DNA from: Clostridia bacterium
Lineage (GTDB): Bacteria > Bacillota > Clostridia > HGM11514
Length of the DNA stretch: 64,000 nucleotides
Assembly: GCA_045586685.1 (NCBI GenBank)
Contig: JAZNAU010000032.1
Location: 13,115 to 77,114, forward strand
Direction: 5' to 3'
The notes under the pieces are model-generated. The model was not told the DNA's origin, did not search any database, and saw nothing but the letters and a program-made list of their open reading frames with translations. Shown one piece after another: positions 575 to 43,448 of this stretch (within the stretch, counting starts at the first letter, position 1; each line of letters begins with the position of its first letter). The position numbers were made by a program, and so were the translations under genes.

Positions 575-3472
575 CTATTGTTTAAGCACCCTTTCGTCCC
601 GTACAATCCGGTATGCGAACACGCCCTTTTCATGTTCACCGTAATATTCCCAGTCTTCATAATACTTTTTTGTCCCGGTCTTCTCGTCACCGTAATGGGA
701 AGCATATATTTCGATGGCCCGGTTCATTATGCGGGCATATTTCTCCGCCTTGGACTTTTCCCCGCAACAGGCAATCCAATCTTCACAGAAACGGCTGATG
801 GCCGTCTCGTAATCCCTGTATTTCTTCAGGTATCGTTTCAACGCATCCTTTTCTATGCGTTCGGTGGTATATGCCATATACGACTGAGGAGATTCCTCCA
901 CACCGAACACGTCACCCTTGTTCCCGCGTCTGATATAGACTTCCTTGAAGAATCCTCTACCTGCCTTGTTGTCAAGCGTGTTTATAGTCCATATCTTCCG
1001 CTGTTCCACTTCCGACAGTCCGAGCATCCTTGCAATTTCTTCGTATCTTTCCTTGAACTTGGACTGGTCAAGCAAGATGGTAATGTCCGAGTTGTTGACG
1101 ATGGCTTCCTTCACGGTCGGGTTTGAAATGATGTCGTTGACTTCCTGCGTGACCACTCCCACGATACCCCAGAATTTTCTCACTGTCTTGTACAGGTAGA
1201 GGATATATCCTGCCATCATTGGCGAGGATATCGCTTTCCAGGCTTCTTCGATGATGAGTGCCTTACGGTTGCTTTTCAGTCTCATCTTCTGGATGAACAC
1301 GTCCATGATAATCAAGGTCACGATAGGGAAAAGGATGGGGTCATCCTTTATCGCATCGATTTCAAAAACAATAAAGGACTGGTCGAACAGTGAGCCTTCC
1401 ATATCCTTGTTCAGTGTCTTCTCGAACTTTCCACCCTTGTAGAACGCTCCCAGTAGATAGGAGAATTCCTTCATATTGAAGCTGATGCCTTTCGTATCGC
1501 AAAGGATCGGGATGTACCGGATGGAGAAGTCATAGAATGAGTTGAAGGACAGTTCCGTTACCTTGATGCTTTTCAGCCTGTCTTCAAGGATCTGTATCTG
1601 CCTGTCAATTTTCTGGTCTATCTTCTTCAGCTTGGCTTCTTTCGGGTCATCCAGTTCCGCACGGGTAAAGCCGTTTTCCGAGAGGATACGCTGTATCGCT
1701 GTAGTGGCGTTTATCTTTTCCCCTCCTTCCCCTTTTACTGCGAGCTGTTCCAGCTTCTTGACCTTATCGGCTATCTTCTTCCTTTCGGAGAGTTCCTCCT
1801 CCGACAATTCATAGCTTTCGTTGGAAAGCTGTAGGCTCATGAGTTCCTTCATCTCCTTGCGTTTCTCTTCGGTGTATCCTTGGAACGGAGTGAAGTAGAA
1901 GTCATAGTAAACCTTGATGGTCTCATCAATGATGCTGTCCTCCAGTTTGCTTACCGCACCGTTTGAACCTTTCCATATCAGGAGTATCAATGATTTCAGG
2001 AAGTTCTGCTTCTCGATGTTGTATTCCTCCCTGTTGATGTAGAAAGGATTCATCGTTATCGGGTTTTCTTCCGAGTAGGATATGTATGTACCCTTGAAAT
2101 ATTGGCACAGTGCCTCGTAGGAATTACCGGTGTCAATCATGACTACATCCGTCTTCTGCTCATGCATCTGTCTTACGACTGAATTCATATGGAATGACTT
2201 TCCGCTTCCGGAAGGTCCGAAACATACGAAGTTGGAGTTCTGTGTAAGCTTCAGTTCTCCTTCCTTCCCGGTGATGTCAATGAAGATGGGTACGCCCTGC
2301 CGGTCCGTATAGCTGATTTTAAGAGGTGTGTTTTCGGAAACCTTCATTCTTTCCTTGGTGAGAAAGCACACTGCTGCATCGTGCAGGCAAAGGAACTTGC
2401 TGTACGATTCAAGTGAAAAGGCGTTTCCGGGGAAATTGTTGATGAACAGTTCCAGTTGGTTGTAGGCGTTCTTGTTGATTGTAATGCCCTGGTCATAGAA
2501 CTGTTTCTCCAGATAATTGAATGCCTTTTCCATATGATGTTCATCGTTGTCTGTCACTATCATGACAGTAAAGTTCGTATAGACAAGCAGACGGTTCTCC
2601 ACAGCGATGTCATGGATGACGTTCTCGATATCCTTTGCGGCCAGCAGGTTTGCAGGATCCGGAAAATTCTTCTTGCGGTTCATGTTGGCATTCAGTTTGC
2701 CGTTCTCTTTCCGTTGGTTGGGAATGATGATGTTCTGCGTATATACGACGCATTCCGCTTCCGGTACCGTCCCCATAAATGAGAACAGGTCAACCGGCAG
2801 TCCCTTGTTCATGGAGAAAGGTTTTATCTGCGGTGGGAGCAGCACTTCGTCAATGTCCACCAAATCAATCATCTTGATAATCTTTTCTCCGCATTTCACA
2901 TGGTTGTCCATGTGCTTGAAATTGTTCAGTGAGAATTTTCCTTTCTTGAAGGAAACACCCAGGTATCTTTTGAGGTATTCCGTAATCTCCCTTGAGTCGA
3001 GGATATGGAAGGAAACCTTTTCCCCGATAAGTATATCCTGTATCTTCTGGAGTTTGTTCCAGAACTCGCCCCATTTCTTCTTGTCAAAGAGGTAGAAGGA
3101 GGAACGTTTCAGTTCCTGTGTGATGATGATGTAGCTTGTCAGTGCCGTATATTCCCTGCCTTCAAAATAGCTCATGTATGACCGGCTGAGGAACGGAGTG
3201 TTTTCAGGAAGTTCCGTGTGGAAACTCTGCTTGCAGAATATGTCCTGTTTCTGCAAGGCATAACCGTCGCCGAGTGTCTTCAGCAGACTGGTGTAAATTT
3301 CGCAAGCCTTGTAGTACGCATCAATATCCGCACAATACTGTTCTACCGGGTTGTCAATCCTGATAATGACGGAGAAATTGCCTTTGCGGGTATAGGCTAC
3401 CCCTACTCCCGGCATTTCGTCCTTTACTGCCTGGTACAGTCCGTCAAATTGTGTCTTCTTGTTCTTAGCCAT
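575..3472 (-). CDS. traG: TraG/VirB4-family conjugation ATPase
   Basis: 965 aa. Walker A GPSGSGKS, Walker B LIIEEAWK and YKTVRKFWG, typical of Bacteroidales TraG. Confidence 0.93.
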   Translation of the reverse strand: MAKNKKTQFDGLYQAVKDEMPGVGVAYTRKGNFSVIIRIDNPVEQYCADIDAYYKACEIYTSLLKTLGDGYALQKQDIFCKQSFHTELPENTPFLSRSYMSYFEGREYTALTSYIIITQELKRSSFYLFDKKKWGEFWNKLQKIQDILIGEKVSFHILDSREITEYLKRYLGVSFKKGKFSLNNFKHMDNHVKCGEKIIKMIDLVDIDEVLLPPQIKPFSMNKGLPVDLFSFMGTVPEAECVVYTQNIIIPNQRKENGKLNANMNRKKNFPDPANLLAAKDIENVIHDIAVENRLLVYTNFTVMIVTDNDEHHMEKAFNYLEKQFYDQGITINKNAYNQLELFINNFPGNAFSLESYSKFLCLHDAAVCFLTKERMKVSENTPLKISYTDRQGVPIFIDITGKEGELKLTQNSNFVCFGPSGSGKSFHMNSVVRQMHEQKTDVVMIDTGNSYEALCQYFKGTYISYSEENPITMNPFYINREEYNIEKQNFLKSLILLIWKGSNGAVSKLEDSIIDETIKVYYDFYFTPFQGYTEEKRKEMKELMSLQLSNESYELSEEELSERKKIADKVKKLEQLAVKGEGGEKINATTAIQRILSENGFTRAELDDPKEAKLKKIDQKIDRQIQILEDRLKSIKVTELSFNSFYDFSIRYIPILCDTKGISFNMKEFSYLLGAFYKGGKFEKTLNKDMEGSLFDQSFIVFEIDAIKDDPILFPIVTLIIMDVFIQKMRLKSNRKALIIEEAWKAISSPMMAGYILYLYKTVRKFWGIVGVVTQEVNDIISNPTVKEAIVNNSDITILLDQSKFKERYEEIARMLGLSEVEQRKIWTINTLDNKAGRGFFKEVYIRRGNKGDVFGVEESPQSYMAYTTERIEKDALKRYLKKYRDYETAISRFCEDWIACCGEKSKAEKYARIMNRAIEIYASHYGDEKTGTKKYYEDWEYYGEHEKGVFAYRIVRDERVLKQ

Positions 3473-3612
3473 TATAATCTCCTTTTCTTTTTTGTATATT
3501 TCCGGTAACTGTCCACTGTATAGCTTATTTCCATGATAATTCTTGCCATACCCTCCTTTGTCCTATGGACGGAACTTGTCCGGATCTTGACTTCCACTTT
3601 ATTTTTTTTCAT
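3472..3612 (-). CDS. Small basic protein (46 aa) coupled to traG
   Basis: MKKNKVEVKIRTSSVHRTKEGMARIIMEISYTVDSYRKYTKKKRRL. Its stop overlaps the traG ATG (TAATG), and it is the first ORF after the promoter motif at 3634-3669. Confidence 0.5.
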   Translation of the reverse strand: MKKNKVEVKIRTSSVHRTKEGMARIIMEISYTVDSYRKYTKKKRRL

Positions 3613-3632
3613 CTTCTTATATCATTATAGCC

Positions 3633-3717
3633 GCAAATTTCGTTTGTGTTGTTATCAAAAAATTCACTTTTGGGAAAAAGGTGTAAAAAAAGTCCCGTGA
3701 TTCACATCACAGGACTT
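3633..3717 (-). repeat. ~85-bp terminator+promoter repeat, copy 1
   Basis: Near-identical to 26243-26328 and 61495-61579, and related to 43353-43437. Contains hairpin AGTCCCGTGATTCACATCACAGGACT and the GATAAC-N13-TTTG motif. Confidence 0.9.
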
Positions 3718-3768
3718 TTCGATTACTATTTTTCATACATGTTATGAAAAAGCATTTCTATTCTTCCG

Positions 3769-3804
3769 CAAAACAAATTCATCTCGTTATCAAAAAAGTA
3801 ACTT
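3769..3804 (-). promoter_or_regulatory. Class-1 promoter motif (AAGT-N3-T6-GATAAC-N13-TTTG)
   Basis: Same consensus and exact 13-nt spacing as seven other copies. Confidence 0.65.
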
Positions 3805-3995
3805 TTAGAAAATAATTATAAAATTATAAATGGATATATTTATATAATTATATATCTATAAAAGTATATAAATAAGAAACCCCGTGTTTCACAACACAGG
3901 ATTCCAATGTTTAACTAATGTCTTATATGTAAATTTCCACTCATTTATTCAACTCACCTTTTTTATTTATTTCTATTCATTTCATCTACTATTTT

Positions 3996-4565
3996 TTATA
4001 TGTCACCTAAATCTTTTTGGATTTTGGTTTCTACATTCTGAGAATCAAGATAGCGAATTACTACTACACCTTCATAAATATCAGTAGTTTTGTCTATGGA
4101 TAACATTATTATACCACCTGTAACTTCCCATACACTAATCCATTCAACAGTTCCTTGATGGACTTCCCGCATTAAAGCTGTATTGGAATCTGAAAGAGCT
4201 GGATTCTTTTCTTTTGAATTTGTTGGTTCTCCGTATTTTTTTGAATATAATTTTTTATAATAATCATAATTATCAACGAGTTTATTCCATTCTCCACTTG
4301 GATCAAACAAAACACTTACCCCATAAACATTCTTTTTATCTACTGTAGCTTCAACTGCTATTATAGCATTCTGTCCAGTAAAGTCACCTAAAAACAATCT
4401 AATATTGTTTTTTTGGCCAATAGTCTTAAATCCTATTGTATTTAATTTCTGGCAAAATTCTGTAACACTACCTTTAATCGGAATACCTTTAAAAGAAAGA
4501 TGTTCTTCTGCCATTAAGTTAATGACAGAAATAACCAACAATAAAGTAAAAATTAGTTTTTTCAT
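3996..4565 (-). CDS. Secreted hypothetical protein
   Basis: 189 aa with an N-terminal signal peptide. More AT-rich than the flanking genes. Confidence 0.75.
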   Translation of the reverse strand: MKKLIFTLLLVISVINLMAEEHLSFKGIPIKGSVTEFCQKLNTIGFKTIGQKNNIRLFLGDFTGQNAIIAVEATVDKKNVYGVSVLFDPSGEWNKLVDNYDYYKKLYSKKYGEPTNSKEKNPALSDSNTALMREVHQGTVEWISVWEVTGGIIMLSIDKTTDIYEGVVVIRYLDSQNVETKIQKDLGDI

Positions 4566-4574: not shown

Positions 4575-5492
4575 TTACTGTATTACCAACGGAATTTCCT
4601 CCAGTGTCCAATCCTTGATGGAAACGTTCTCAACACTGATTTCCTCTCCGTTGAAGATAATGTTTATATCACTTAGTTTTCCCTGTTCCCAGTAATTGGC
4701 TTCTTCAGGAAGAACCAATGAATACTGCCGTCCGCTGATGGAAAGAATGATGCTGACCGGTGTAGCTTCATTCTTTCCTCCCTTGGTCGTTATGAGCATC
4801 GGCATGACAACCATACTTGTATAGCTGTCATCGTCATATTCATTATCAAGAACGATACCGATATTGTCCTTTCCGTATTCACCGAAACTGGTATTCGCAA
4901 TTTTACCCGTAATGAGGTCAATCACCCCGGCTACAGGAAGATCCTTTTCCTTTCCCTTGATGGAAATGCTTTCGAGTACCCTTTCATCCGGCATGTTCTG
5001 TTTGCGGATGTTGAATCTCAACAGACTGAGTGCCGGCTTCATGAACACATCGATGCGGTTATAGGAGGCGTTGAAGAAATATTTTGACTTTCCATACAGA
5101 TAGCTTACATCCGTATTTCCTTCTACCGGAACTTTCCTTATATCCGCTATTGAACTGTAGGGGAAGTAGGCATATGCCTCCATATTCTCCTTACCTGCCA
5201 TCACACCAGTTGACATCTTCCATTCTCCTCTTGCATAATATGCCTTGATGTTGGAATTGAGCGTATCATTTTCTTCACTACAATTCTTGATGAACAATCC
5301 GATGCAGTCATTGTCGTTGAATCCATGGTTGAACACATTGTCAACGCTGACAAGAAGTTCCATTTCAGTTTCCACCCTTTCATTCTTGCCGAGTCCCGGA
5401 ACCGGATCGACAGGATAGTCATTCTCACCGCCCTTGTTGCAGGATGTGAGGACAGCCAGTCCGAATATCCAATATAATATGTTCCTTTTCAT
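4575..5492 (-). CDS. Fimbrillin-family (type V pilus) lipoprotein
   Basis: Lipobox LTSC, AYFPY motif and C-terminal VSIKDW strand. Confidence 0.8.
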   Translation of the reverse strand: MKRNILYWIFGLAVLTSCNKGGENDYPVDPVPGLGKNERVETEMELLVSVDNVFNHGFNDNDCIGLFIKNCSEENDTLNSNIKAYYARGEWKMSTGVMAGKENMEAYAYFPYSSIADIRKVPVEGNTDVSYLYGKSKYFFNASYNRIDVFMKPALSLLRFNIRKQNMPDERVLESISIKGKEKDLPVAGVIDLITGKIANTSFGEYGKDNIGIVLDNEYDDDSYTSMVVMPMLITTKGGKNEATPVSIILSISGRQYSLVLPEEANYWEQGKLSDINIIFNGEEISVENVSIKDWTLEEIPLVIQ

Positions 5493-5503
5493 AAACCGTC
5501 CTT

Positions 5504-6400
5504 TTAATTGTCTATAGTTACATCTGAAGAATCATTGCTCCACTTGTCCAGTCTGATGGTACCGGCTACAGCATCCACGAAAATATATACGGTAACTTCT
5601 TCCGTATTCCAATAATGGAGCCGTGCCGAAATGTCAAGATTCAGTTTCCTTTCAACACCCTGTGAATCCGTGAATGTGAAGTACAGGATATTCGTACCTG
5701 TCACACCGAGGAAATTGGCATAACCGGCATAGACGGTCTGATAACCGCCTTCACAAGCCGTTGCCCTGCCCTGTTTCCGGATAGGGAAAGCGAGTACCGC
5801 TTCTTCTCCAGGAGTGATGGAAAAGTTATGGAGATTCATTTCAACCGCCAGTCCGGAGATGTCGATGATACATTTCTCCACCAGTTCCCCGCTGTCCCGG
5901 ATATTGGCAATGAAGTTAATCTTCTTCAGTACCCGCTCCATGGGAATGTACTGTTCCTGTCTTTCGTCCCCGTCAATGCTGATGTTCTGTACCCTTGCAG
6001 TATAGATCATCTCCTGCGGATTGTCCTTTATTTCCCTTTCCCCCCTTTCATTGTAGGTTGTGGGGATTTCAATCTTAGCAGTCTCGAATCTCTGACCGAT
6101 TCCTTTCAGATACTTCAGGTCATGAAGGACCAGTGCATCATATTTCCCTTCGGGAATGTCCATTTCCTCCTTCTCTTCGTCTATCTTGTAACAGTAGAAA
6201 GGTATGTTACCTTCCTGCGGAAACATATATAGCCAACAGTCCTGCAATCCAACCGGGATGCGTCCTGTTTCCGGTTCAGCCGCCGTCCATTGCGTGTTGA
6301 TGATGCTGTTATTTGTCCAGCTGTCTTCCTCAAACGGTTCGCATGATGCGAACATGGAGGCTATTGCAACGACAGTCAAATACTTGAAACCTCTCATCAT
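5504..6400 (-). CDS. Type V pilus anchor-like lipoprotein (Mfa2/DUF5119-like)
   Basis: Lipobox FASC, IPEGKYDALV motif and C-terminal LDKW. Lies within the pilus cluster. Confidence 0.65.
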   Translation of the reverse strand: MMRGFKYLTVVAIASMFASCEPFEEDSWTNNSIINTQWTAAEPETGRIPVGLQDCWLYMFPQEGNIPFYCYKIDEEKEEMDIPEGKYDALVLHDLKYLKGIGQRFETAKIEIPTTYNERGEREIKDNPQEMIYTARVQNISIDGDERQEQYIPMERVLKKINFIANIRDSGELVEKCIIDISGLAVEMNLHNFSITPGEEAVLAFPIRKQGRATACEGGYQTVYAGYANFLGVTGTNILYFTFTDSQGVERKLNLDISARLHYWNTEEVTVYIFVDAVAGTIRLDKWSNDSSDVTIDN

Positions 6401-6404
6401 CCTA

Positions 6405-7325
6405 TTATTTTACAGGTGAAACGACCACATTACCCTTGTCTGTAATTTCCCATTCGTTTACCGAAACGGTAGATACGGACATTTCCGTAGCGTTCATGGT
6501 CAGTGTGAAGTTATATATATAGCCTTGCTTGAACTCTTCGCTCATAGTACCCGATGCGGTGTATTCCTTACCGTCAACGGTAAGCGTAAAGGCAACACCC
6601 TTCTCTTTCAGACCGTTCGGAACGACCATCAGTTCCGTGATGTTGCCCTCGCCTGTCATCGTATAATTTCCGCTCCATGATACGGAAGAACCGGCATTCT
6701 TCACACCCGCCAATGCTCCCGTTCCTACATTCATGGTTGCCTCGGTACCGAAGCCGTCCGAAGCTATGCTGATGGCGGTTACTTTCCCTGTACCGGTATA
6801 TGTTCCCATAACGGTAGTCACACTTACGGCAGAAAGTGCATGTTTCATGCTGAAGTTCACGGTTGCTTCTGCATTGGAAAGACCTTCCACCCATCCGCTG
6901 TACATATAGTCTGTCTGAGTGTCAGTTTCAACCGGAATGGCTGAAATGTCTGTTACACCCGTTGAATACGGATAATATGCGGCTGCTTTACCTTCTGTGG
7001 ATGAAAGGAGTATCTTTCCACCGTCCCATTCCTGTGATTCCTCTTCCCCTGTTGCGGTAAACTTCACATTCTTGTAATCGAAACCGTCATAACTGTTGCC
7101 GTCGGCATCGGTAACGGTAACTCCGATGGTTGAACCGTCGGGAAGATAGGTTCCTTTCTGGATGCTCCTTGAACCGTTGACCCATCCGATTGTCGTACCG
7201 ATGGTAAGGTCCTTCACATGTGCATTGTTGACTTCCAGCATTTCAGTGTCCTCGTTTGTACAGGATACTGCCATCAATGAAGCTGCCATTGCGGCAACAT
7301 ACATCATAAAATTCTTCTTTTCCAT
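6405..7325 (-). CDS. Fimbrillin-family lipoprotein
   Basis: Lipobox AVSC, AYYPY, TDYMY, MKHALS and C-terminal VSVNEW. Close paralog of the N-terminal half of the DGR target. Confidence 0.85.
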   Translation of the reverse strand: MEKKNFMMYVAAMAASLMAVSCTNEDTEMLEVNNAHVKDLTIGTTIGWVNGSRSIQKGTYLPDGSTIGVTVTDADGNSYDGFDYKNVKFTATGEEESQEWDGGKILLSSTEGKAAAYYPYSTGVTDISAIPVETDTQTDYMYSGWVEGLSNAEATVNFSMKHALSAVSVTTVMGTYTGTGKVTAISIASDGFGTEATMNVGTGALAGVKNAGSSVSWSGNYTMTGEGNITELMVVPNGLKEKGVAFTLTVDGKEYTASGTMSEEFKQGYIYNFTLTMNATEMSVSTVSVNEWEITDKGNVVVSPVK

Positions 7326-7337
7326 ATCGTAATATTA

Positions 7338-9110
7338 TTAGTTATACAGTTGGTTATAGAGATTGTTCTCCTTTATCAGTTCCGCTATTTCCGGGTCAAG
7401 TTCCCCCCGTTCAATCTTGCTTTCGTCCATCTTGCAGCTTTTCAGGAAAAGCTGTACCGCCAACTCGTCCATATTGAGCCTTGCGTAAAGGACTGCAAGC
7501 AGATATTCCCTGTCTGCCGTTTCCGGCTGTTCAAGAAGTATGTTCACTGCCGTACCGTTATATCCCAATGACATGTAGCATATGGCGGTGTTCATGTCCC
7601 TGTACTCCAGCAGTTTCGGCATTGCTTCCTTATATTTCCTTTCATCCATCAACTTTATCGCTTCAGCATATTCAGTATCAATTACATCGGTGTACATCAC
7701 GTCTTCCACCATACCTCTGCGTGAGAGATGGAATACAAAGTCCACCGTTCTGAGCTTCGGATAATATTCCATTTTCAGTTTCTTGTAAACGGCAGGGAAA
7801 GCCACGGATATTTTCCGTTCCCGTTCATCAGGATCCTGTGTTTTTTTAATCAAGGCCAATATGTCTTCCTTCTGCTCGATATCGCTTTCAGACAGCATCT
7901 GCATCAATTTGTCCCAATTTTCAGCCTTATACTGTACCTTCACCAAATCAACGGTTTCGGCATTGCTCTGTAGTGCCGGTTCAAGATATTTCTTGAGTGA
8001 TACGGCACGTTTTTCGGCCAGTATTTTGTTCGCCTGGAACGATCCTTCCGGTGAGCATGCCGGTATGAGTACGATGGAGTCCACGATAAATTCGTTACCC
8101 TCGTTGATTTCCTTCATTTTCCGGTAGACTTTCTCTATCTCTTCCCTGTTGTTGTGCAGTGTATCATCCACAACTGTACTTCCTGCCGGGAAGTGGATAT
8201 ATGCACTTGTTGTTTCAGTTACTTTTCTTTCCACCGTTTCACGGATATATCTCGGTTTCCTGTCAAGGAACTGTGTCATGGATGAAATGAAATAGTTCAG
8301 TGTATCACCGCTACGAAGGTGGTAGGTTGCCATTCCCAAGTCTTCCACTTTCGCAGTGAAGTACAGTTTCAGTTTCCGTCTCATCTCTTCCGTCCGGAAA
8401 TCCTGTTTGTAGTAATATTCCAGATTTTTCCGGTTCTTTACGATGGTATCAAGAACCCATGATCGGTTGTACCGTTCGTTACCTTCCGCCCAATGGTCAA
8501 GTTCCCTTACCAATACATCCGTGGTACTGTCATTCCTGTAGAAATATGGGTAGAAATCCTTTCTTCTTTCCACCCTCTTCTTGTTTTTATTGATTCTTCT
8601 GTTCAGTTTCCTTTCTTCATACCATTTCCTTCTTCCGTCCATATTCCGGAATTGTTCACCGGCCACCACGACGGATTTCAGTTCATGTTTCTCTCCTTCA
8701 TTGTCAAGAGTAGGATGTATTGTCACCCTCCAGTCCTTTTTAGTATATGTTTCCGGAACGCTAACCATGAAGGCGATGGTAATGTTCCCGTTCCGTTCCG
8801 GGACGGTCTTGGACTTTGCCGTTACAGTCACCTCGTCAAGCTGCGAGGTAAGCATGTATTCCCCGTTCGTGCTGTCACGCACTGATGTCATTACGGTCTT
8901 CTCCTGTCCGTCCTTATCCTTGAATGTTATATGTTTTCCCGTTTCCACCTTGTTTTCTTCCGTCTTTTTTTCGGCGTTTGCAGGTTGTCGTACATTGACC
9001 AGTCCGCTCACCATATAGGCTTCCTCCAGTCTGCGTTGTGTAGAACATCCGGATAGGATGGAAAAGGCGATGACCGGCATCAATATCGGTAAGGCATGTA
9101 TCTTTTTCAT
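7338..9110 (-). CDS. OmpA-like/TPR lipoprotein of pilus assembly loci (DUF3868-like)
   Basis: Lipobox LSGC, OmpA-like SPEGS..N..LAEKRA..LKKYL, YYPKLR and C-terminal TPR-like helices. Confidence 0.75.
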   Translation of the reverse strand: MKKIHALPILMPVIAFSILSGCSTQRRLEEAYMVSGLVNVRQPANAEKKTEENKVETGKHITFKDKDGQEKTVMTSVRDSTNGEYMLTSQLDEVTVTAKSKTVPERNGNITIAFMVSVPETYTKKDWRVTIHPTLDNEGEKHELKSVVVAGEQFRNMDGRRKWYEERKLNRRINKNKKRVERRKDFYPYFYRNDSTTDVLVRELDHWAEGNERYNRSWVLDTIVKNRKNLEYYYKQDFRTEEMRRKLKLYFTAKVEDLGMATYHLRSGDTLNYFISSMTQFLDRKPRYIRETVERKVTETTSAYIHFPAGSTVVDDTLHNNREEIEKVYRKMKEINEGNEFIVDSIVLIPACSPEGSFQANKILAEKRAVSLKKYLEPALQSNAETVDLVKVQYKAENWDKLMQMLSESDIEQKEDILALIKKTQDPDERERKISVAFPAVYKKLKMEYYPKLRTVDFVFHLSRRGMVEDVMYTDVIDTEYAEAIKLMDERKYKEAMPKLLEYRDMNTAICYMSLGYNGTAVNILLEQPETADREYLLAVLYARLNMDELAVQLFLKSCKMDESKIERGELDPEIAELIKENNLYNQLYN

Positions 9111-9358
9111 GATTCTTCCGTTTCCTCTTCAAATGAGATTGTCAGTTCCCATTTGAAATTGTTCGTATAATAGTAACTGTTCATAATCTTGTCGAACTTG
9201 ACGATAGCACCGAGTTCCTCCAGTTCGTATAGTTTCTTGGACAGGGTTACAGGGTTCACCTTCATTTCCTTGGCCAGTTGTGCCCGTCCTCCGGTCCGAC
9301 CTTTCTCAATCCTTTTGTGAAGCTTGTACAGTCGCTTCATGTTGCTCATAAAATCCAT
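9107..9358 (-). CDS. Small winged-HTH protein
   Basis: 83 aa. TGGRAQLAKEMKVNPVTLSKKLYELEELGA followed by the wing SYYY. Confidence 0.7.
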   Translation of the reverse strand: MDFMSNMKRLYKLHKRIEKGRTGGRAQLAKEMKVNPVTLSKKLYELEELGAIVKFDKIMNSYYYTNNFKWELTISFEEETEES

Positions 9359-9372
9359 ACCCTCCTTGTTTT

Positions 9373-9918
9373 TTAAAATAGATAATTGAAGCTAACGTCA
9401 AACTTTGCGGGAAAAATTCTGAATCCACGTTCATTTCCGTAGTTCCGTGAATTGCTTTTCCATCCGCATTTGTCATAGTCCGCATATCCGGCACCTACAC
9501 CCACTTCCATTTCCACGTTTATCCTTTTGCCGAGAATCCAGCTGTAACCACCTCCGATACCGCCACCGAAACATCTGCCGTCATAACGATATTTATGATT
9601 CATCCATCCACCTACATGAAATCTTGAAGCAATACCATAGGCAGAGATGAACCAGTTTGTATGTGGAGATAGCAACCAGTATCTTGCTCCAGGCATGACC
9701 GTCAGTTGCTGGAATCTTGAATTGTCATTGAACTTGAAAGGGTTGTATAACACCGGAAGATGTAGGGAAACTCTTTTGCCTACAACACAGTTTATTTCCA
9801 CATTGGGCGTTGCTGTCAGCCACATTGTACCGCTTGTCCTTACACCGATGGACTGTGCAAAAGTTATTGCGGTAAAGGCTATAGACATTATATGAATACA
9901 AAACAATCTCTTATTCAT
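9373..9918 (-). CDS. DUF3575-type outer-membrane beta-barrel
   Basis: TPNVE, YNPF, MPGARYW, RYDG, GGGYSW and a terminal aromatic residue (YLF). Confidence 0.85.
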   Translation of the reverse strand: MNKRLFCIHIMSIAFTAITFAQSIGVRTSGTMWLTATPNVEINCVVGKRVSLHLPVLYNPFKFNDNSRFQQLTVMPGARYWLLSPHTNWFISAYGIASRFHVGGWMNHKYRYDGRCFGGGIGGGYSWILGKRINVEMEVGVGAGYADYDKCGWKSNSRNYGNERGFRIFPAKFDVSFNYLF

Positions 9919-9938
9919 AGGGCTTCACTGATTATGGG

Positions 9939-9968
9939 AAGAGGGGAAACGGTACATCTCCCCTCCTC
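9939..9968 (-). terminator. Stem-loop after the major pilin gene
   Basis: GAGGGGA...TCCCCTC inverted repeat between the pilin and DUF3575 genes. May attenuate or stabilise the mRNA. Confidence 0.5.
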
Positions 9969-9983
9969 TTAAAAAAAATACAA

Positions 9984-11003
9984 TTAGTTGTTGTCCGGAG
10001 TCTGGATGTCACCACCTGTCTGTTCAACCTTGATCCATGGCTTAATTGAAACTTCAGTCACGTCCAAACCTGTACCCTTCAAAGTGAAAGTATATTCGTA
10101 ATTCTTACCTGCTACATATCCATCTTGAACAGCAGGGATAGGAAGAGTATAGGCTTTGCCGTCCACTGTAACTGTCACTTCAGCATCACCTTCAGCAACT
10201 GTACCCGGATAAAGGAGCAAGCGAGGGAGCTTTGCTGCATCTTCTACATCCATCAAAGTTGCTGATGCATCCGGAGTCAAAGAAATACCACTTGCAGAAG
10301 TAGTACCACCAGTGATTGCACCAGTACCGATATGCAAGGTTGCTTCACCAGTCTTGATTGCTTCCTTACCTTGCTTGTTCTTCAGTACGATTGAAGAAAC
10401 CTTACCTTCACCCGGATAAAGTACTGTAACATCAGTTGTCTGCTTGAATTTGAATGATACCATTGCAAGAGCATGGTTCATATTCAAAGCTACGGTGTTT
10501 GAAGCATTTGAAATGTTGTCAACAGGGTCTGCCCACATATAATCTGTCTGATCCTGGTCTACTGTACCGTCAGACTGACCGGTACCCTGTGCATCAGCAA
10601 CAGTCATAGGAATGGCAGAACCGTCTTGTGATGCATTACCAGCTGCATAAGGATAGTAAGCGTAAACCTTACCTACAGTTGATGAAAGGATAATTGCTTG
10701 TGAAGTTGCATTCCAATCACCATCAGCTTCATTATATGAAACGTTGGTTGTAGCGATGTTGCTGCTTGCATCATTGTAGGCAGTACCGAAAGCAGTGTTA
10801 CGGTAGATGTAAAGACCGAGTGCTTCACCATTTGTGAAAGATGTTGCGGTGATACCGGCACGTGACTGAATACTTTCCAAGCCTACCGCTGTAACCTGTA
10901 ATTGGTTCGGTGTACTGTTGTTTACTACATCGTCATCATTGTTACATGATGTCATTCCTACGAAAGCTGCTGCGAAAGCAGCTATTACATAAAACTTTTT
11001 CAT
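9984..11003 (-). CDS. Probable major fimbrillin (type V pilus shaft)
   Basis: Lipobox MTSC, AYYPY, TDYMW, MNHALA and VSIKPW. First pilin gene of the cluster, followed by a hairpin. Confidence 0.85.
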   Translation of the reverse strand: MKKFYVIAAFAAAFVGMTSCNNDDDVVNNSTPNQLQVTAVGLESIQSRAGITATSFTNGEALGLYIYRNTAFGTAYNDASSNIATTNVSYNEADGDWNATSQAIILSSTVGKVYAYYPYAAGNASQDGSAIPMTVADAQGTGQSDGTVDQDQTDYMWADPVDNISNASNTVALNMNHALAMVSFKFKQTTDVTVLYPGEGKVSSIVLKNKQGKEAIKTGEATLHIGTGAITGGTTSASGISLTPDASATLMDVEDAAKLPRLLLYPGTVAEGDAEVTVTVDGKAYTLPIPAVQDGYVAGKNYEYTFTLKGTGLDVTEVSIKPWIKVEQTGGDIQTPDNN

Positions 11004-11049
11004 TTGATTTGAATTTTGAATTTAATGATTATAAAATTGATAAGACCTA

Positions 11050-11343
11050 TCAGGTCGTTTTGATTAAGTTGGTCACGATCCAAGTACCTTTATATTCCTT
11101 TCGGTTATGCAGTCCTTTCTTTATATTCTTGTTGATTCGATATATTCCGAATCCGAGAACGGACGCACCTACCAACAGTGCTATGAAGAAGCCGAAGAAA
11201 GAAAGGCATATTCCGACAGATACCAGGATAGCAAAGAAAGTCCCTGCCCCCCAAAGTATGTTCTGTCCTTTCAGACCGAACATGATAAGTGGTTTTTGCA
11301 AGCCTCTGTAGACGTTATATGACTGGTATTCTTCCGCTTCCAT
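11050..11343 (-). CDS. traF: TraF-like (DUF4133, VirB3-like) membrane protein
   Basis: YNVYRGLQKPL.FGLKG motif and two TM helices. Follows traE. Confidence 0.8.
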   Translation of the reverse strand: MEAEEYQSYNVYRGLQKPLIMFGLKGQNILWGAGTFFAILVSVGICLSFFGFFIALLVGASVLGFGIYRINKNIKKGLHNRKEYKGTWIVTNLIKTT

Positions 11344-11373
11344 TTCTCTGGTTATTGAATTGTTACCATTGGA

Positions 11374-11730
11374 TTATTCGAAGAACAACGGCAATGCTTG
11401 AGCTGCTGCAATGAGGAATATACATGAACCGACAATCAGCATGATTGACTTCTTTACGTCCTGTTCCTCGTTGTTCATCTTGATAAACACACTTATCGCA
11501 CCACCAAGTACGACTACCCCTGCAATGGCATAGATAAGATTCTGCACCATCGGGATATAAGCCTTGATTTCGGTTGTCACCTGTGCGATTGCACCTTGTC
11601 CTGCTGCCCCGTTCTGTGCGAAAGCAACAAAGGACATCATCATAGTCAAGAGGAACATACATGCTCTTTTAGCTATACTTTTCATCCCCTTGACTGCGTT
11701 CGTTACGAACTTTCTGATTCCTGTTCTCAT
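11374..11730 (-). CDS. traE: TraE-like (DUF4134, VirB2-like) conjugative pilin
   Basis: YAIAGVVVLGGAISVFIKMNNEEQDVKKSIM..VGSCIFLIAAAQALPLFF. Confidence 0.85.
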   Translation of the reverse strand: MRTGIRKFVTNAVKGMKSIAKRACMFLLTMMMSFVAFAQNGAAGQGAIAQVTTEIKAYIPMVQNLIYAIAGVVVLGGAISVFIKMNNEEQDVKKSIMLIVGSCIFLIAAAQALPLFFE

Positions 11731-11760: not shown

Positions 11761-12129
11761 TTACGCCGTAGCCGGTATTATGCCTCTGAAGAAATTCTCA
11801 CCTGTTTCCTCTTCAAAAATTTTCTTGAGTTCCAATGAAGAGAATCCCCCGCAATAGTTTACTTCTATTGTTTCTTTTTGATTTTCTTCTTCGTTTTCTT
11901 CAGCCGGTAGAGGATTGTCCTGTTCCTGTTCTCCACCTGCCTTATACCCGGTGAGGATTTCCGCATCTTTAGGGACATAGCTGTCCACGGAGTCGGAAAT
12001 GTCAATATCCTCCCCTCTATCTTCATTATTACTTGTCTTGCCGGACATATAAAGGTCGTATCCTATCATACCGGCGAAGTACAATGTATATACGCCCATT
12101 ACCCCTGCTGCAAATTCATAAAAGCCCAT
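11761..12129 (-). CDS. Acidic membrane-anchored protein heading the tra/pilus operon
   Basis: N-terminal TM segment (YTLYFAGMIGYDLY) and an acidic tail. Confidence 0.7.
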   Translation of the reverse strand: MGFYEFAAGVMGVYTLYFAGMIGYDLYMSGKTSNNEDRGEDIDISDSVDSYVPKDAEILTGYKAGGEQEQDNPLPAEENEEENQKETIEVNYCGGFSSLELKKIFEEETGENFFRGIIPATA

Positions 12130-12215
12130 ATCTTAATCTTCTCATTAAACGGTCGATTTGTGAAACAATTAAATTGCTGGGGCTATCTTTGCAGTCGATT
12201 TTAAGAAATTAGGAT

Positions 12216-12815
12216 ATGAAAATTGGATACGCACGAGTTAGTACAAAGGATCAAAATTTTGATTTGCAAATTTCAGCCTTAGAAAAGGCTGGATGTGAGA
12301 TTATCTATAAAGAAAAAAGAAGTGCCGTAAAGGATAGACCAGAATTAGAAAGAATGATGGAGTATCTTAGAAGTGGAGATATAGTCGTCGTTTGGAAACT
12401 TGATCGTTTGGCACGTTCATTGCAACATATTTTGTTCTTAATAGAAGAGTTGAAACGAAGAGATATAAGAATAATTAGTTTGTCTGAAGGAGTTGATACG
12501 GATACTCCTACAGGAAAATTCTTTTTGTCAATTACGGGTGCTTTTGCTGAATTAGAACGTAATTTGATTGTAGAGAGGACGCAGGCAGGATTACAGGCGG
12601 CCAGAGAGAGAGGGGTGAAATTAGGACGGAGAGAAGGTATTAGTGAAGAAAGAAAGGTTATAATGGAGGCAGCTTGTAATCTTTACAGGGATAGTGAAAT
12701 GACTACACCGGATATATGTGCATCATTGGGTATGTCTTCGGCAACTCTATATCGTTACCTTAAACTTTATGGGATAGCCAAAAAAAACAATCCGGGGAGA
12801 AGGAAAAAAAATTAA
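12216..12815 (+). CDS. Serine resolvase/invertase
   Basis: GYARVST, VVWKLDRLARS and a C-terminal HTH. Confidence 0.93.
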   Translation: MKIGYARVSTKDQNFDLQISALEKAGCEIIYKEKRSAVKDRPELERMMEYLRSGDIVVVWKLDRLARSLQHILFLIEELKRRDIRIISLSEGVDTDTPTGKFFLSITGAFAELERNLIVERTQAGLQAARERGVKLGRREGISEERKVIMEAACNLYRDSEMTTPDICASLGMSSATLYRYLKLYGIAKKNNPGRRKKN

Positions 12816-13960: not shown

Positions 13961-14363
13961 ATTTAGGCTTGAGATTGAATTCTATATTTTTTTGCAAAGC
14001 AGATAGGTACGACAATAAAGTGTCACGTCTATACCCTCTTCCTTTTTCAATGCTGATAATTCTACTTGGTGTTATCGATGCTTTTACTTGAATATCGAAT
14101 TGTGTCATCTGACATTCTTTACGGATGGACGTTAATTCGTTTCCTAAATCTTCAAGTGTCTTTATTTCTTTATTGTTCAAAATGAATTGATAACCTAAAG
14201 CTTGGATGTATATAAGTAAACTGATTACATTATAGTTGGAACCAGTTTCTATATTATTCAATACAACTTTTTGGAGAGGAGTTATCCCCTCAGGAAAAAC
14301 AACCTTTAATTGTTTTTCATTTCGTAAATACTGTATTTTCTTTTCGATTTCCTGAAGAGTCAT
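13941..14363 (-). CDS. Tandem XRE-type HTH regulator
   Basis: Two HTH-like units (NNIETGSNYNVISLLIYIQAL and SIEKGRGYRRDTLLSYLSAL). Start taken at MTLQEIEKK. Confidence 0.75.
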   Translation of the reverse strand: MTLQEIEKKIQYLRNEKQLKVVFPEGITPLQKVVLNNIETGSNYNVISLLIYIQALGYQFILNNKEIKTLEDLGNELTSIRKECQMTQFDIQVKASITPSRIISIEKGRGYRRDTLLSYLSALQKNIEFNLKPKYDFLEQ

Positions 14364-14381
14364 ATAGTTTATATTTTGCCA

Positions 14382-14413
14382 CAAAAATAGCAATAATAAA
14401 CGATACTACCAAA
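14382..14413 (-). promoter_or_regulatory. Class-2 promoter with conserved spacer
   Basis: TTTG-GTAGTATCGTTTATTATTGC-TATTTTTG matches the Bacteroides -33/-7 consensus with a 20-nt spacer. Confidence 0.75.
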
Positions 14414-14473
14414 TTATAAACAAGTTATTTGCTTATGGTATAAAAGTTTATATTTGTCCGTTTTCTTTACCTT

Positions 14474-15144: not shown

Positions 15145-15195
15145 CGGATAAACCGGGACAAATTATTTCGCAACTCAATAATTTTCTAATGTTAT

Positions 15196-17252: not shown

Positions 17253-17325
17253 TTATAAATGTTTATAAATATATAGTTTTAGATTTATATATTGATATGT
17301 TTATAGAAATTTATTTTCATTATTA

Positions 17326-38111: not shown

Positions 38112-38520
38112 ATTTTTCCAGATAAAGTTTGATAGAACCGGTAATGAGATAATAAAGTTTCATGTAATTGACACTATCCTGAAATTCGTCATCAATGTCC
38201 GGAAACTTCTTGAATTCCTCTTTGGTATATTCCATCATCTGCATGATGAATTCATGTTTCTCGTAGTCATTTATATCAAATTCTTCTTCTACAATTTCCT
38301 TCACCAAATCATAGGCTGAGAATTTCAAGTCTTTATAAAGGACAATTAAGGCTTCACGCTTCGCTTCATTAACATTCATGCCCATGTGCGAACAACGCTC
38401 GAATTCATCTTCAGCCAGTCCGCTTCTTGCATTGATGAATTCCGTGTCTTCAATTTTATCCGGGTGGTGCTGCACCATAAAATCCGTCAATACCAGTTTG
38501 AAATAAGATAGATGTTCCAT
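38098..38520 (-). CDS. DUF1896-like protein
   Basis: LSYFKL.L..FM..HHPDK..D.EFI..R. Sits upstream of the methylase/helicase, the usual position for this family. Confidence 0.75.
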
Positions 38521-39973
38521 TTGATTTTCTTTTTTTGTTTCTCCGCACAAAGAAAGCCCGGTTGGTTATCAAAAAAGGCACTTCTTCCTTTAATTTTTGA
38601 TGTTCCAATGACGGCATGATTCCGTAAAGTTCAAAATACACAAAATCATACAGTCTTTTCCTGCTAAGGAAAGGCTTGTATTCGTTTCTTTTCCGGAACT
38701 GTTCATGATACCTTCTCATGGTTATCTTCCAAGCGTACTGATGTTGTTTTTCCATTATCTTTCGGATGGAAGTGACTTTGGACAGGTCTTCTTCTATATG
38801 GAAGAAGAATTTCACTCTCGGATGCCGTTCTATCATGTTCCGGATATACTTCCTTGCGTTGAAGTGCTTGAGCATACCGAGATAAGAGTTTATCCTGCTT
38901 ACATAATCCTCTATCTTGTGGGTGTGCTTCATATAGTCGGGAAGCTCGTCAATATCCCGTAATACCCGACGGAACCCGCCACGAATTCTTTTTCCTGGTA
39001 ATAACGCCTTTCCCTTGATGATTGCACCCAAGAACGGGATTCCCTGTTTGTAATGCAACACCCTAATCTTGTCGGGATGGAGTACAAGACCCATTGATTT
39101 GAGGAATTCCTTTAACACCTTTACGATGTTCAGAAGAAATTCCTTGCTCTCATGAACGATGTAGAAATCATCCACATATCTGCCATAGAATCTTAACATG
39201 CTCTTGCAGAAATGGTCGAAAGGAGAGAGGTAGAAGTTACCGAGCATCTGTGAAGGCAATGCACCGATGGTAAGACCTTTCTTGTTGACATCCATATCCG
39301 CTGTATATTCACCGTCATAATCGCATGGTTTGGGTGCTCCGCAACACGAGAATACGGATTTGTTGTCAGGGAGCTCCCTCCATAATTTCCTGTTTCCACG
39401 AATCACTACATTGTTCAGCGGTGAATTGAACAGGAACACATGAAGCTGCCATAGCAACTTTTCCTTGTCATTATTGTGGTACTTTTCTTCCACGAACGCT
39501 TTCAGTTTCTCCCAAAGATTTCCACGGACTATACTCATGAAATAACCTTTGATGTCACCAAGAAGGATATAACAATCCTTTGTGAAATTGGCGGAGCATT
39601 GGGCAATGAACCTCTGCAATCGTTTGATACCGAAAAGGGTTCCCTTCCCCTTACGGCAGGAATAGCAGTCGTATATGAATTCCTTTTCAAAGAGAGGTTC
39701 CAACTTTTCAGATACGAAATGCTGGTCCACACGGTCCTTGAAATCCGGTGCGAAAATTTCACGAAGTACGGGTTTTGTAATAAGAAAGGTACGTGCCGGT
39801 AATGGGGCGTATGTTTCTGTTAGCAGTTCATTCCTCAGTTTTGGTAGAGCGGTCGTTATATGGAATGAAAATTCCTGTTCCTGTAGGGTGTTGCGTTTCC
39901 GCTTCCTGCAAGAACAATATCCATGATACAGTTCACCCATATCAACATCTGACTTCCGGATAGATTTAGCCAT
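38456..39973 (-). CDS. DGR reverse transcriptase
   Basis: REIFAPDFKDRV, YSCRKGKG, DIKGYFMSI, GLTIGALPSQ (DGR-type SQ motif) and YGRYVDDF. Adjacent to TR and avd. Confidence 0.95.
   Translation of the reverse strand: MAKSIRKSDVDMGELYHGYCSCRKRKRNTLQEQEFSFHITTALPKLRNELLTETYAPLPARTFLITKPVLREIFAPDFKDRVDQHFVSEKLEPLFEKEFIYDCYSCRKGKGTLFGIKRLQRFIAQCSANFTKDCYILLGDIKGYFMSIVRGNLWEKLKAFVEEKYHNNDKEKLLWQLHVFLFNSPLNNVVIRGNRKLWRELPDNKSVFSCCGAPKPCDYDGEYTADMDVNKKGLTIGALPSQMLGNFYLSPFDHFCKSMLRFYGRYVDDFYIVHESKEFLLNIVKVLKEFLKSMGLVLHPDKIRVLHYKQGIPFLGAIIKGKALLPGKRIRGGFRRVLRDIDELPDYMKHTHKIEDYVSRINSYLGMLKHFNARKYIRNMIERHPRVKFFFHIEEDLSKVTSIRKIMEKQHQYAWKITMRRYHEQFRKRNEYKPFLSRKRLYDFVYFELYGIMPSLEHQKLKEEVPFLITNRAFFVRRNKKRKSNGTSILFQTGIDGFYGAAPPG
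38548..38583 (-). promoter_or_regulatory. Class-1 promoter motif inside the RT 3' end
   Basis: AAGTGCC-TTTTTT-GATAAC-N13-TTTG, 28 bp before the DUF1896 ATG. Confidence 0.65.
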
Positions 39974-39997: not shown

Positions 39998-40122
39998 TCC
40001 CGCACGAACCGAACCCGATTGTTGTTGTTCTTATTGTTGTTGTTCACGTTGCCATTGTTGAAGTTCACGTTCCAGCCGTTGTTGGAAGAGTACTCTGAAC
40101 TACTCCAATAGTTGTTGGACGC
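39998..40122 (-). ncRNA. DGR template repeat (TR)
   Basis: 125 bp ungapped match to 41208-41332, with 17 AAC/AAT codons. Lies between avd and RT. Confidence 0.95.
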
Positions 40123-40247: not shown

Positions 40248-40619
40248 TTACCCTTCTGTAACCGGCACTTTAGCGGTCTTGTTTCTGAATCCGTTAATTT
40301 GTCTCTCTACGGAATCCAGTCTTTCCAATATGGCAGGGAAATCCTTATGCTGGAATAGTCCGAGTTGATGAGCTACATCCACCAATGTTTTCAACTCCGT
40401 CAGGTGTTCCATGAATACATCGAAAAAAGCCATTTTCTTTTCATAAATATCTTCTGTATATATATGGTAAAAATCCATAGGTAGATGGAGTGCTGAAGAT
40501 GTGATTCTTTCACCGAAAGTATATCGGTACTGGCGTGATGTCTTACCCATTGCTCTTTCTATCTCTGCTGTCAGTTCCACGGTCTGACGGTATAGAGGAA
40601 GTGAATTATATTGTCCCAT
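40248..40619 (-). CDS. avd: DGR accessory variability determinant (Avd, four-helix bundle)
   Basis: 123 aa. LPLYR..YRYTFGERI..QINGFR, directly upstream of the TR. Confidence 0.85.
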   Translation of the reverse strand: MGQYNSLPLYRQTVELTAEIERAMGKTSRQYRYTFGERITSSALHLPMDFYHIYTEDIYEKKMAFFDVFMEHLTELKTLVDVAHQLGLFQHKDFPAILERLDSVERQINGFRNKTAKVPVTEG

Positions 40620-40620: not shown

Positions 40621-41094
40621 TCATTTCAACATATTCTGCCAATCGTTAATAAGCGTAATTGCTGCAACTGGTGTGAGTGTACCCAAATTCAGTTTCTTTA
40701 GCTGTTCGATAACTTCCTTTTCCCTATTGTTATTGGAAACGGTTATCACTTCATTCTTTCTCTTTCCTCCGCTTTTTTTGATGACATGGACATTCGTAAT
40801 ATCTTCAAGAGTTGTTTTTATTTCGTCACATTCAATCTCGATGTATTTTTTGAATTCTCCATTTTCATCTTTCAATGTAATGTTTTCAAGCATGGACGAA
40901 TTCTGAACGATACCGATACGGAGATACCAATCTCCGTTTTTCAGTTCATGTTTGAGAAAAACGACACTGCCGTTTATAAAATGACTGAAGCGTACAGCGG
41001 AATGGTTGTACGCTACATAGAAGATACCTTCTCTATAAAGTCGGATGATCTTTTCACCCGACTTTTCTAATGCTAATTTTTCTTTGACTTCCAT
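40621..41094 (-). CDS. MutS-like DGR accessory protein
   Basis: IRLYREGIFYVAYNHSA (MutS domain I-like) and LNLGTLTPVAAITLI (MutS C-terminal-like). Confidence 0.7.
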   Translation of the reverse strand: MEVKEKLALEKSGEKIIRLYREGIFYVAYNHSAVRFSHFINGSVVFLKHELKNGDWYLRIGIVQNSSMLENITLKDENGEFKKYIEIECDEIKTTLEDITNVHVIKKSGGKRKNEVITVSNNNREKEVIEQLKKLNLGTLTPVAAITLINDWQNMLK

Positions 41095-43318: not shown

Positions 43319-43352
43319 CTTACATAATTTTAATTGATTAAAATAATTTGTC

Positions 43353-43437
43353 GCAAATTAAATGTGGCGTGTTATCAAAAAACTCACTTCTGGTAAAAAG
43401 GTGCAAAAAAAGTCCCGTGATTCACATCACAGGACTT
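43353..43437 (-). repeat. Terminator+promoter repeat, copy 3 (upstream of the DGR target)
   Basis: Same hairpin and GATAAC-N13-TTTG motif, with a diverged spacer. Confidence 0.85.
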
Positions 43438-43448
43438 TCATTCTCTTA

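Follow-up and report, generated by a model that had tools for sequence, protein, structure and literature searches.

A type V pilus module between traF and traG of a probable Bacteroidales plasmid carrying a diversity-generating retroelement with a pilin-like target

The stretch analyzed here (the window) covers 64,000 nucleotides (nt) of contig JAZNAU010000032.1 (positions 13,115 to 77,114; contig C32 below) of assembly GCA_045586685.1, binned as a Clostridia genome, and contains conjugation genes, a set of type V pilus genes and a diversity-generating retroelement (DGR). Nearly all genes, including every feature given below with coordinates unless stated otherwise, lie on the minus strand. 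The gene traE (11374..11730) encodes a VirB2-like pilin of a type IV secretion system (T4SS) with a DUF4134 domain (PF13572, E 6e-28) and is followed by traF (11050..11343), a diverged VirB3-like gene that matches DUF4133 only at E 0.49, shares 30% identity with a Pfam-validated TraF, that of Dysgonomonas mossii (E 1e-4), and has syntenic tblastn homologues standing between TraE and TraG in many loci. The VirB4 ATPase gene traG (575..3472; TIGR03783, 410.8 bits against a cut-off of 261.55) lies further along, and the downstream T4SS core continues on the same contig below the window (locus L004) with a TrbL/VirB6-like protein, TraM (7e-38), a DUF4138 protein (TraN, 3e-60) and a T4SS-DNA_transf match (5e-20). 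As the earlier note on this DNA had claimed, traE-traF are set apart from traG by about 7.5 kb of co-oriented type V pilus genes: traF stops 7,577 bp short of the start of traG, and this interval holds three fimbrillins, an Mfa2-like anchor, a DUF3575 protein, a 590-aa lipoprotein, an 83-aa open reading frame (ORF) and a 189-aa secreted protein.

In the order in which they follow traF, these genes begin with a pilin (9984..11003; Mfa_like_1, 3e-32), here termed pilin A, the candidate major stalk subunit, and a DUF3575 gene for an outer-membrane beta-barrel-like protein (9373..9918; PF12099, 3e-44). The 83-aa ORF (9107..9358) has 35–39% identical homologues at the same place in two related loci, L097 and L187, and weak helix-turn-helix (HTH)-like matches, all below cut-off. 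The 590-aa lipoprotein, p590 (7338..9110), a pilus-locus accessory with no Pfam or PDB match of its own, precedes pilin B (6405..7325; Mfa_like_1, 2e-31), a headless member of the pilin class to which the DGR target also belongs, and an anchor-type subunit of the Mfa2/FimB kind (5504..6400), for which the PF08842 match is marginal (21.9 bits against a cut-off of 21.2) and DUF5119 is matched at 2e-5. Pilin C (4575..5492; Mfa_like_1, 5e-19) is an accessory or tip-type fimbrillin that groups in a tree of pilin domains with one pilin each of L187 and L097, and the secreted protein, p189 (3996..4565), occupies a variable cargo slot. Lipobox cysteines can be read from the sequence at Cys20 in pilin A, Cys22 in pilin B, Cys18 in pilin C and Cys20 in the anchor, and a putative Arg cleavage motif (SR before A or S), which is a sequence pattern only, is placed at Arg48 in pilin A, Arg53 in pilin B and Arg54 in the DGR target and is indistinct in pilin C. 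A profile of the pilin B family matches PDB entries 3T2L, 3UFI, 4K4K and 3SY6 at 2e-31 to 8e-19. The p590 family served as the marker for relatives of the locus; its homologues adjoin fimbrillin or FimA genes in chromosomal loci, and one of them (L138) bears weak matches to OmpA and to tetratricopeptide repeats. DUF3575 and p590 homologues occur as a pair in 43 of 79 related genome loci and 70 of 80 metagenome loci, and the two proteins may form an outer-membrane platform for type V pili. The succession of DUF3575 and a p590-like lipoprotein is widespread in Bacteroidales pilus loci (L096-L266), with more than 530 matches in each of two collections.

The separation of traE-traF from traG is unusual. 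That these three genes are normally adjacent, as the earlier note stated, was borne out by 78 loci with a TraG relative, from which 20 were dropped as too short, leaving 58 with at least 1.3 kb of upstream sequence and the TraG N-terminus: in 53 of these 58 a TraE/TraF homologue ends no more than 1.2 kb from traG. The five exceptions comprise three copies of the plasmid described here, a locus with only 1.7 kb of upstream sequence and no traE/F within it (L007), and one in which two unrecognized small ORFs (126 and 99 aa) occupy the place expected for traE/F (L079). The window resembles the CTnDOT-type tra operon (traA-traQ) of mating-pair formation class B (MPF-B) in having traE, a putative, diverged traF, traG and downstream TraM/TraN, and differs from it in the 7.6 kb of pilus genes and the terminator/promoter break between traF and traG. 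In PMC4027160 TraE, TraF and TraG are assigned to VirB2, VirB3 and VirB4, and the sections of that source consulted treat TraE, TraI and TraO as predicted pilins only and do not mention fimbriae. In a Dysgonomonas metagenome-assembled genome (MAG), a reverse-transcriptase-like match interrupts the TraG match (L285, around position 7357), which may represent a group II intron.

Intergenic distances from traF to p189 range from -4 to 65 bp, and the scan of the gene strand from traF to pilin C gave no terminator-like site. A terminator-like hairpin with a 13-pair stem and a T-rich tail follows p189 (3876..3905). Given the short gaps and a terminator-like site only after p189, the pilus genes appear to ride on the traE-traF transcript, at the head of which stands a 122-aa ORF (11761..12129) without a Pfam family and with a 33% identical homologue at the same place in L187. 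Upstream of traG, two promoter-like motifs (3786-3805 and 3651-3670) enclose a further terminator hairpin (3633..3805). This terminator and separate promoter cassette point to at least two transcription units, with the pilus genes probably read together with traE-traF and traG restarting from its own cassette. A type V pilus module physically within the T4SS gene cluster is supported, whereas the earlier description of a locus embedded in one conjugation operon does not hold as far as the single operon is concerned. In the region 3600-3920, read on the minus strand, the order is terminator, AT-rich promoter, a leader of about 85 nt ending in a second strong terminator, second promoter and a 46-aa ORF that runs into the start of traG; the region folds with a z-score of -5.3 and could be a small RNA or an attenuator. 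A search for an invertible promoter near the resolvase/traE junction gave weak long-range inverted repeats alone and nothing convincing.

The promoter-like motif upstream of traG, AAAGTNANTTTTTTGATAAC, has eight minus-strand occurrences against 0.03 expected. It belongs to a cassette of 85–94 nt, composed of a GC-rich hairpin with a T-run and then the promoter-like AAAGTGAATTTTTTGATAAC ... ATTTGC, of which four copies were found: before traG (3633-3717), before the DGR target (43352-43438) and before two other operons (26237-26330 and 61489-61581). The core motif stands further at 3786-3805, 32564-32583, 38565-38584 and 62093-62112. The target-side copy (43352..43438) lies directly upstream of the target gene and is 87% identical to the traG copy, so that traG and the DGR target appear to have a promoter type in common, not one exclusive to them. 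A repeated cassette heading plasmid operons suggests coordinated plasmid-wide regulation.

The DGR lies some 30 kb from the pilus genes. Its target (41201..43318) is composed of a pilin N-terminal domain (Mfa_like_1, 6.5e-35), two repeat domains and a lectin-like domain (Lcl_C, 3.8e-8) that contains the variable repeat (VR; 41208-41332). The Lcl_C match, covering residues 617-703, scores 34.1 bits against a cut-off of 34.9, and residues 614-705 match PDB 8Q4E. Behind the target follow a 157-aa accessory ORF (40621..41094), possibly Msl-like, with a weak match to the C-terminal part of mutS1 (E 0.006), an Avd-like four-helix-bundle accessory protein (40248..40619), the template repeat (TR; 39998..40122) and a reverse transcriptase (RT) gene (38456..39973; RVT_1, 3.8e-18) that overlaps or abuts the TR region. 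The Avd-like protein reaches 22.3 bits with bAvd (1.9e-4; cut-off 40) and 22.8 bits with NF033474 (8.9e-5; cut-off 80), both below cut-off, and 24.9 bits with TIGR02436 (cut-off 24). The TR and VR form a 125-nt pair with 83% identity in which all 21 differences (21/21) fall at TR adenines; no second VR for this TR was found in the assembly. Among 12 aligned target homologues the VR residues vary, and one homologue that is 97% identical deviates almost only in the last ~45 residues. The DGR is real and active. Residues 1-301 of the target share 40% identity with pilin B over 304 aa (E 6e-52), and the peptides that the earlier note quoted for the two proteins are both present. In a FastTree phylogeny of 145 pilin domains, midpoint-rooted and read without inspection of branch support, pilin B and the target fall in one class but in separate subclades, with headless short pilins interleaved with long lectin-headed proteins; the close paralogy that had been proposed for pilin B and the N-terminal half of the target thus stands as membership of the same family and not as a recent duplication.

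The same arrangement was found in diverged relatives. The metagenome contig L187 has the order HTH gene, Rep3, resolvase, 148-aa ORF, traE, traF, pilin, DUF3575, small ORF, p590-like gene, anchor, two pilins, 3.4 kb of reverse-strand cargo and traG, with identities to the window of 80% for traE, 62% for traF, 53% for p590 and 71% for TraG. Locus L097 reads Rep3, resolvase, traE, traF, pilin, DUF3575, small ORF, p590-like gene (47%), pilin, anchor, two pilins and then a DGR target, a lipoprotein with a pilin-like N-terminus of ~760 aa from its likely Met start (in an 817-aa frame) that begins 45 bp after the last pilin. Its VR is the C-terminal 190 nt of the target, with the TR and RT further downstream; TR and VR differ at 21 positions, 19 of them TR adenines. 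The RTs of L097 and the window share 34% identity over the tblastn match. In the tree, each of the three pilin classes unites members from all three lineages (window, L187 and L097), so the composition of the module is old. Closer to the window, two independent assemblies, G001 and G002, have the same gene order at 96–99% nucleotide identity, and G001 holds the pilus module and the DGR on a single contig of 79,332 bp.

Comparison of the window with G001 also revealed variation of a second kind. The tra and pilus proteins are 99–100% identical except for pilin A at 67%, and the divergence is confined to 10915-10000, corresponding to the mature pilin, with 61–71% nucleotide identity between flanks that are 99–100% identical. 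The plasmid therefore varies one pilin by allele replacement and another by the DGR. The cargo carried between the last pilin and the traG promoter is variable as well, p189 of the window being replaced in G001 by a 369-aa zinc-finger-like ORF (L005:8379-9488) and in L187 by reverse-strand small ORFs (L187:11147-14327); the stretch in the window is also not common to L008 and L089. One contig of G002 (L006, ~3200-3400) differs in joining ~62092 to ~3874 through the repeated AT-rich promoter region and was set aside as a chimera or a 58-kb deletion variant. Such a join, like the binning of the contig with a Spo0A-bearing Clostridia genome, would be expected if the traF-pilus-traG order or the link between pilus and DGR were chimeric; this is very improbable, given the recurrence of the order in G001 and G002 and in the diverged L187 and L097 and the presence of all parts on one contig of G001.

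The contig is 77,114 bp long, and its terminal 99 nt are found again at C32:741-839, as expected of a circle of ~76.3 kb if the first 740 nt are an alternative branch. It encodes a Rep3 initiator, ParA, a MobB-like relaxase and two resolvase-type serine recombinases, a profile search of the contig gave no PF00589 match to a tyrosine integrase, and TraG is closest to that of pBF9343-type Bacteroides plasmids (52% identity). These features (Rep3, ParA and relaxase, no tyrosine integrase, the repeated contig end and the pBF9343-type TraG) argue for a plasmid rather than an integrative and conjugative element (ICE), so that the element is not read as a Bacteroides ICE. Spo0A genes, typical of Clostridia, are present in the same bin on other contigs (C39 and C6), and the same plasmid, with TraG 99–100% identical, recurs in MAGs labelled Lachnospiraceae, Clostridia and Bacteroidales. 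Because lipoprotein pilins, an outer-membrane barrel and a Bac_Flav TraG point to a Bacteroidales host, the Clostridia bin is probably wrong and the contig a mis-binned Bacteroidales plasmid. A plasmid family of ~75–82 kb is thereby defined, seen in goat gut MAGs and easily mis-binned into Firmicutes genomes. In one Phocaeicola MAG, a contig with TraG 55% identical to that of the window (L007) is accompanied by another with a target-like C-terminus 59% identical to the window's (L275), and this MAG may hold a fourth lineage of the plasmid family.

The target, a predicted lipoprotein, fits the tip of a pilus in its pilin-type N-terminal domain, its lipobox cysteine and arginine, Cys23 and Arg54, which are invariant in 12/12 homologues, and its lectin-like VR. 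As ~400 residues follow the pilin domain, the target would lack C-terminal strand donation and may be read as a distal cap and variable tip adhesin. Alternatively, it could act outside the tra-embedded pilus, as a stand-alone lipoprotein adhesin or at the tip of host chromosomal pili, the resemblance to pilin B reflecting a shared family only. In keeping with this, the target is monocistronic behind its own cassette and 30 kb from the pilus genes, the ORFs upstream of it (99-166 aa) belong to no pilin family and are separated from it by the terminator/promoter cassette, it occupies a different subclade from pilin B, and the related variable proteins BovT and BfiT remain periplasmic (10.1101/2024.11.15.621889). 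This alternative nevertheless seems unlikely, in view of the invariant Cys23 and Arg54, the location of all four Mfa_like_1 genes of the whole assembly (4/4) on this contig, the position of the L097 target in a pilus operon and the presence of both module and DGR on the 79-kb contig of G001. The claim that a pilus tip is varied by the DGR retains the support of family features, of synteny in L097 and of published precedent, but not of gene order in the window, where the target lies outside the pilus operon; a pilus with a DGR-varied tip is well supported as a reading, with the place at the tip itself predicted from domain composition.

Pilus modules were also found beside T4SS genes elsewhere. 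In PLSDB, 37 records match p590, seven of which cover at least 74% of it, and the neighborhoods of three of these seven were examined. In B. uniformis pBUN1, as in a B. fragilis plasmid, 3–8 bp separate the end of the last fimbrillin from a downstream 103-aa traE-like gene and the TraG/VirB4 cluster, and in a B. ovatus plasmid the module begins 67 bp downstream of the coupling-protein gene. Among cultured Dysgonomonas with canonical CTnDOT-type operons, D. alginatilytica is an example in which DUF3575, a p590-like gene, an anchor and two fimbrillins lie between traG and traI, where D. mossii has a single fimbrillin and two more Dysgonomonas loci are alike by tblastn. Across 201 sampled Bacteroidales genomes, p590 was matched over most of its length at eight places in four genomes and the D. 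mossii-type fimbrillin was present in three. More distant p590 loci lie on chromosomes, in pilus clusters that include fimbrillin, FimA or DUF4906 genes. As most p590-type modules lie far from T4SS genes, the embedding of pilus modules in T4SS clusters is recurrent but rare. The conserved insertion of a pilus module in a T4SS cluster and its recurrence at several junctions are what is new here: the literature search yielded no report of type V pilus genes lying within or next to a tra/T4SS cluster, nor of such a pilus taking part in mating.

Taken together, we consider it probable, though well short of certain, that the window represents most of a conjugative plasmid of Rep3 type and ~76 kb, hosted by Bacteroidales of the gut or rumen, with a tra-embedded type V pilus whose DGR-varied tip makes it an adhesion or aggregation organelle; this judgement applies to the explanation as a whole. 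A self-contained Fim/Mfa-class module, in which DUF3575 and p590 form the outer-membrane pair and are joined by an anchor and pilins of three classes, would have been inserted between the VirB3-like traF and the VirB4-like traG and then retained. Its genes would be co-transcribed with traE-traF up to the terminator that closes the unit, traG restarting from its own cassette, and the distant DGR would diversify the lectin-like head of a lipoprotein of the pilin B class. Made alongside the transfer apparatus of plasmid-bearing cells and forming no part of the DNA channel, the pilus would hold these cells to bacteria or surfaces, in aggregates that permit transfer.

Several observations weigh against this explanation. 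The target could be displayed on pili encoded by the host chromosome, or be a lipoprotein free on the cell surface, and the L097 target is no orthologue of that in the window. The cassette shared by traG and the target also heads two other operons, its motif occurs eight times and it was absent from L187, L097, L096, L267 and L004; it may simply be the plasmid's standard promoter. Upstream of p590 relatives, traE/traF were present in only one of 79 genome loci and one of 80 metagenome loci, and only one of the eight full-length places is beside traG, the p590-type gene lying ~600 bp downstream of it (G163:C87). Window-type copies of the plasmid all come from metagenome bins. In published systems, deletion of bfrT, which encodes a DGR-varied tip adhesin of a Bacteroides ICE, left transfer like that of the wild type on nitrocellulose filters between isogenic strains (10.1101/2024.11.15.621889), and the mfa locus of the plasmid pMMCAT adjoins a LuxR-like regulator, with transfer not detected in liquid biofilms (10.1101/2024.04.29.590671).

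Part of this evidence would be accommodated if the pilus and the DGR target were purely cargo, that is, host colonization factors for mucus, feed particles or biofilm whose position among the tra genes is accidental. pMMCAT, a 98-kb Bacteroidales conjugative plasmid, has an Mfa pilus that drives aggregation and biofilm formation, with the LuxR-like regulator beside its locus (10.1101/2024.04.29.590671), and the dispensability of bfrT for ICE transfer, the chromosomal location of most p590-type modules away from T4SS genes and the turnover of the neighboring slot (p189, the 369-aa ORF in G001 and the 3.4 kb of reverse-strand genes in L187) are in line with such a role. Against it, co-oriented modules abut or lie inside T4SS clusters at at least four junctions, of plasmid type as well as CTnDOT type, a recurrence for which chance insertion into essential operons is a poor explanation, and the traF-pilus-traG order survived divergence to 53% in p590 and 71% in TraG. 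An accidental position is thus possible, and rather doubtful. A role in conjugative contact would be plausible, with cargo for adhesion or aggregation as ordinary a reading. The recurring layouts hint that pili help plasmid-bearing cells stick to partners.

The features of pMMCAT are further comparable to those of the window in that a large conjugative plasmid carries a type V pilus locus and the stalk gene is a hotspot of variation, here pilin A at 67% among copies otherwise 99–100% identical; it differs in the LuxR-like regulator beside the locus and in an exopolysaccharide locus. The words 'DGR' and 'retroelement' are absent from the text consulted of 10.1101/2024.04.29.590671, which describes no transfer experiment with an mfa mutant and does not say where the locus lies relative to the tra genes, and 98-kb plasmids in PLSDB show weak similarity only (25% over part of p590). 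That DGRs diversify type V tip adhesins (BfrT, BthT and BunT) on Bacteroides ICEs is already published, in work that places the targets last in anchor-stalk operons and describes Msl as an accessory protein of the Bfr/Bth DGRs (10.1101/2024.11.15.621889). The window shares with these systems a target with a stalk-like pilin N-terminus, a linker, a lectin-fold VR head, a lipobox and a putative Arg site, as well as a candidate Avd and a possible Msl, a conjugative carrier and a VR that varies in natural populations. Here, by contrast, the carrier is a Rep3 plasmid without a tyrosine integrase on the contig, the target stands alone behind its cassette and not at the end of an anchor-stalk operon (a feature found in L097), and the anchor and pilins lie between traF and traG; the words 'traG' and 'tra genes' do not occur in the searched text of that preprint. 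A locus search with the target alignment, using very specific patterns, did not recover the published Bacteroides DGR-ICEs.

Adhesins are known from other conjugation systems. Among the Gram-positive T4SSs of pCF10, pGO1 and TnGBS, an adhesin is encoded among the conjugation genes and is said to stabilize mating (PMC4027160). The window resembles these in the placement of putative adhesin genes; the Gram-positive adhesins are single cell-wall-anchored proteins of monoderms, with neither polymerized pili nor hypermutation. The comparison with the shufflon made in the earlier note holds as an analogy of function. R64 (IncI1) has a type IVb thin pilus whose PilV tip is varied by site-specific recombination among a few fixed segments, and this pilus matters in liquid matings. 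Both plasmids encode an accessory pilus apart from the T4SS channel with a tip adhesin, predicted as such in the window, varied by a dedicated DNA-diversifying system; in the window the pilus is instead of type V, and variation arises by adenine-directed retro-mutagenesis. Among the ORFs scanned none was identified as belonging to a type IV pilus family, and both recombinases are serine enzymes of the resolvase type; sfx/shufflon repeats were not searched for. Since the R64 thin pilus matters in liquid, the bfrT result, obtained on filters, is compatible with a contact role. More speculatively, type V pili might be the missing contact organelles of MPF-B conjugation, recruited repeatedly, with stalk-allele swaps and DGR-varied tips retuning which cells can be mated with in the manner of PilV and the DUF3575/p590/anchor/pilin module catching and holding recipients in fluid or mucus; we regard this proposal, with both its parts, as unlikely on present evidence.

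How Bacteroidota donors find and hold their partners is poorly understood, and type V modules repeatedly wired to T4SS genes, with a DGR in the same operon in one lineage and on the same plasmid in another, are a concrete and testable candidate. They might also explain in ecological terms why conjugative elements carry DGR-varied pilus tips. If the pilus is colonization cargo only, the plasmid is still an example of stalk-allele and tip hypervariation combined, adding little beyond the two 2024 preprints.

Some further features of the plasmid may be noted. No curated cut-off was reached by a hexapeptide acetyltransferase (51557-52291), and no resistance family was among the 25 families listed of 45. 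The Rfam scan of the window gave a single tRNA and nothing else; this is a tRNA-Arg (CCT) gene (44405-44477) ~1.1 kb upstream of the DGR target, and no tRNA-Lys attachment site was found. Below the window on the same contig, a 221-aa lipoprotein with an Lcl_C/lectin-like C-terminus is encoded between the TraN-side genes and the coupling-protein gene (L004:4419-5084, minus strand); it has no VR match to the TR, and similar matches occur near tra genes in two Segatella/Prevotella loci (L065 and L074). Positions 12000-23000 of the window form a low-GC block (29–35% GC against ~40–45% elsewhere) that carries Rep3, a resolvase, NikA/MobB-like relaxase genes, ParA, an Abi-like gene and a second resolvase, and that could be a co-integrated smaller replicon.

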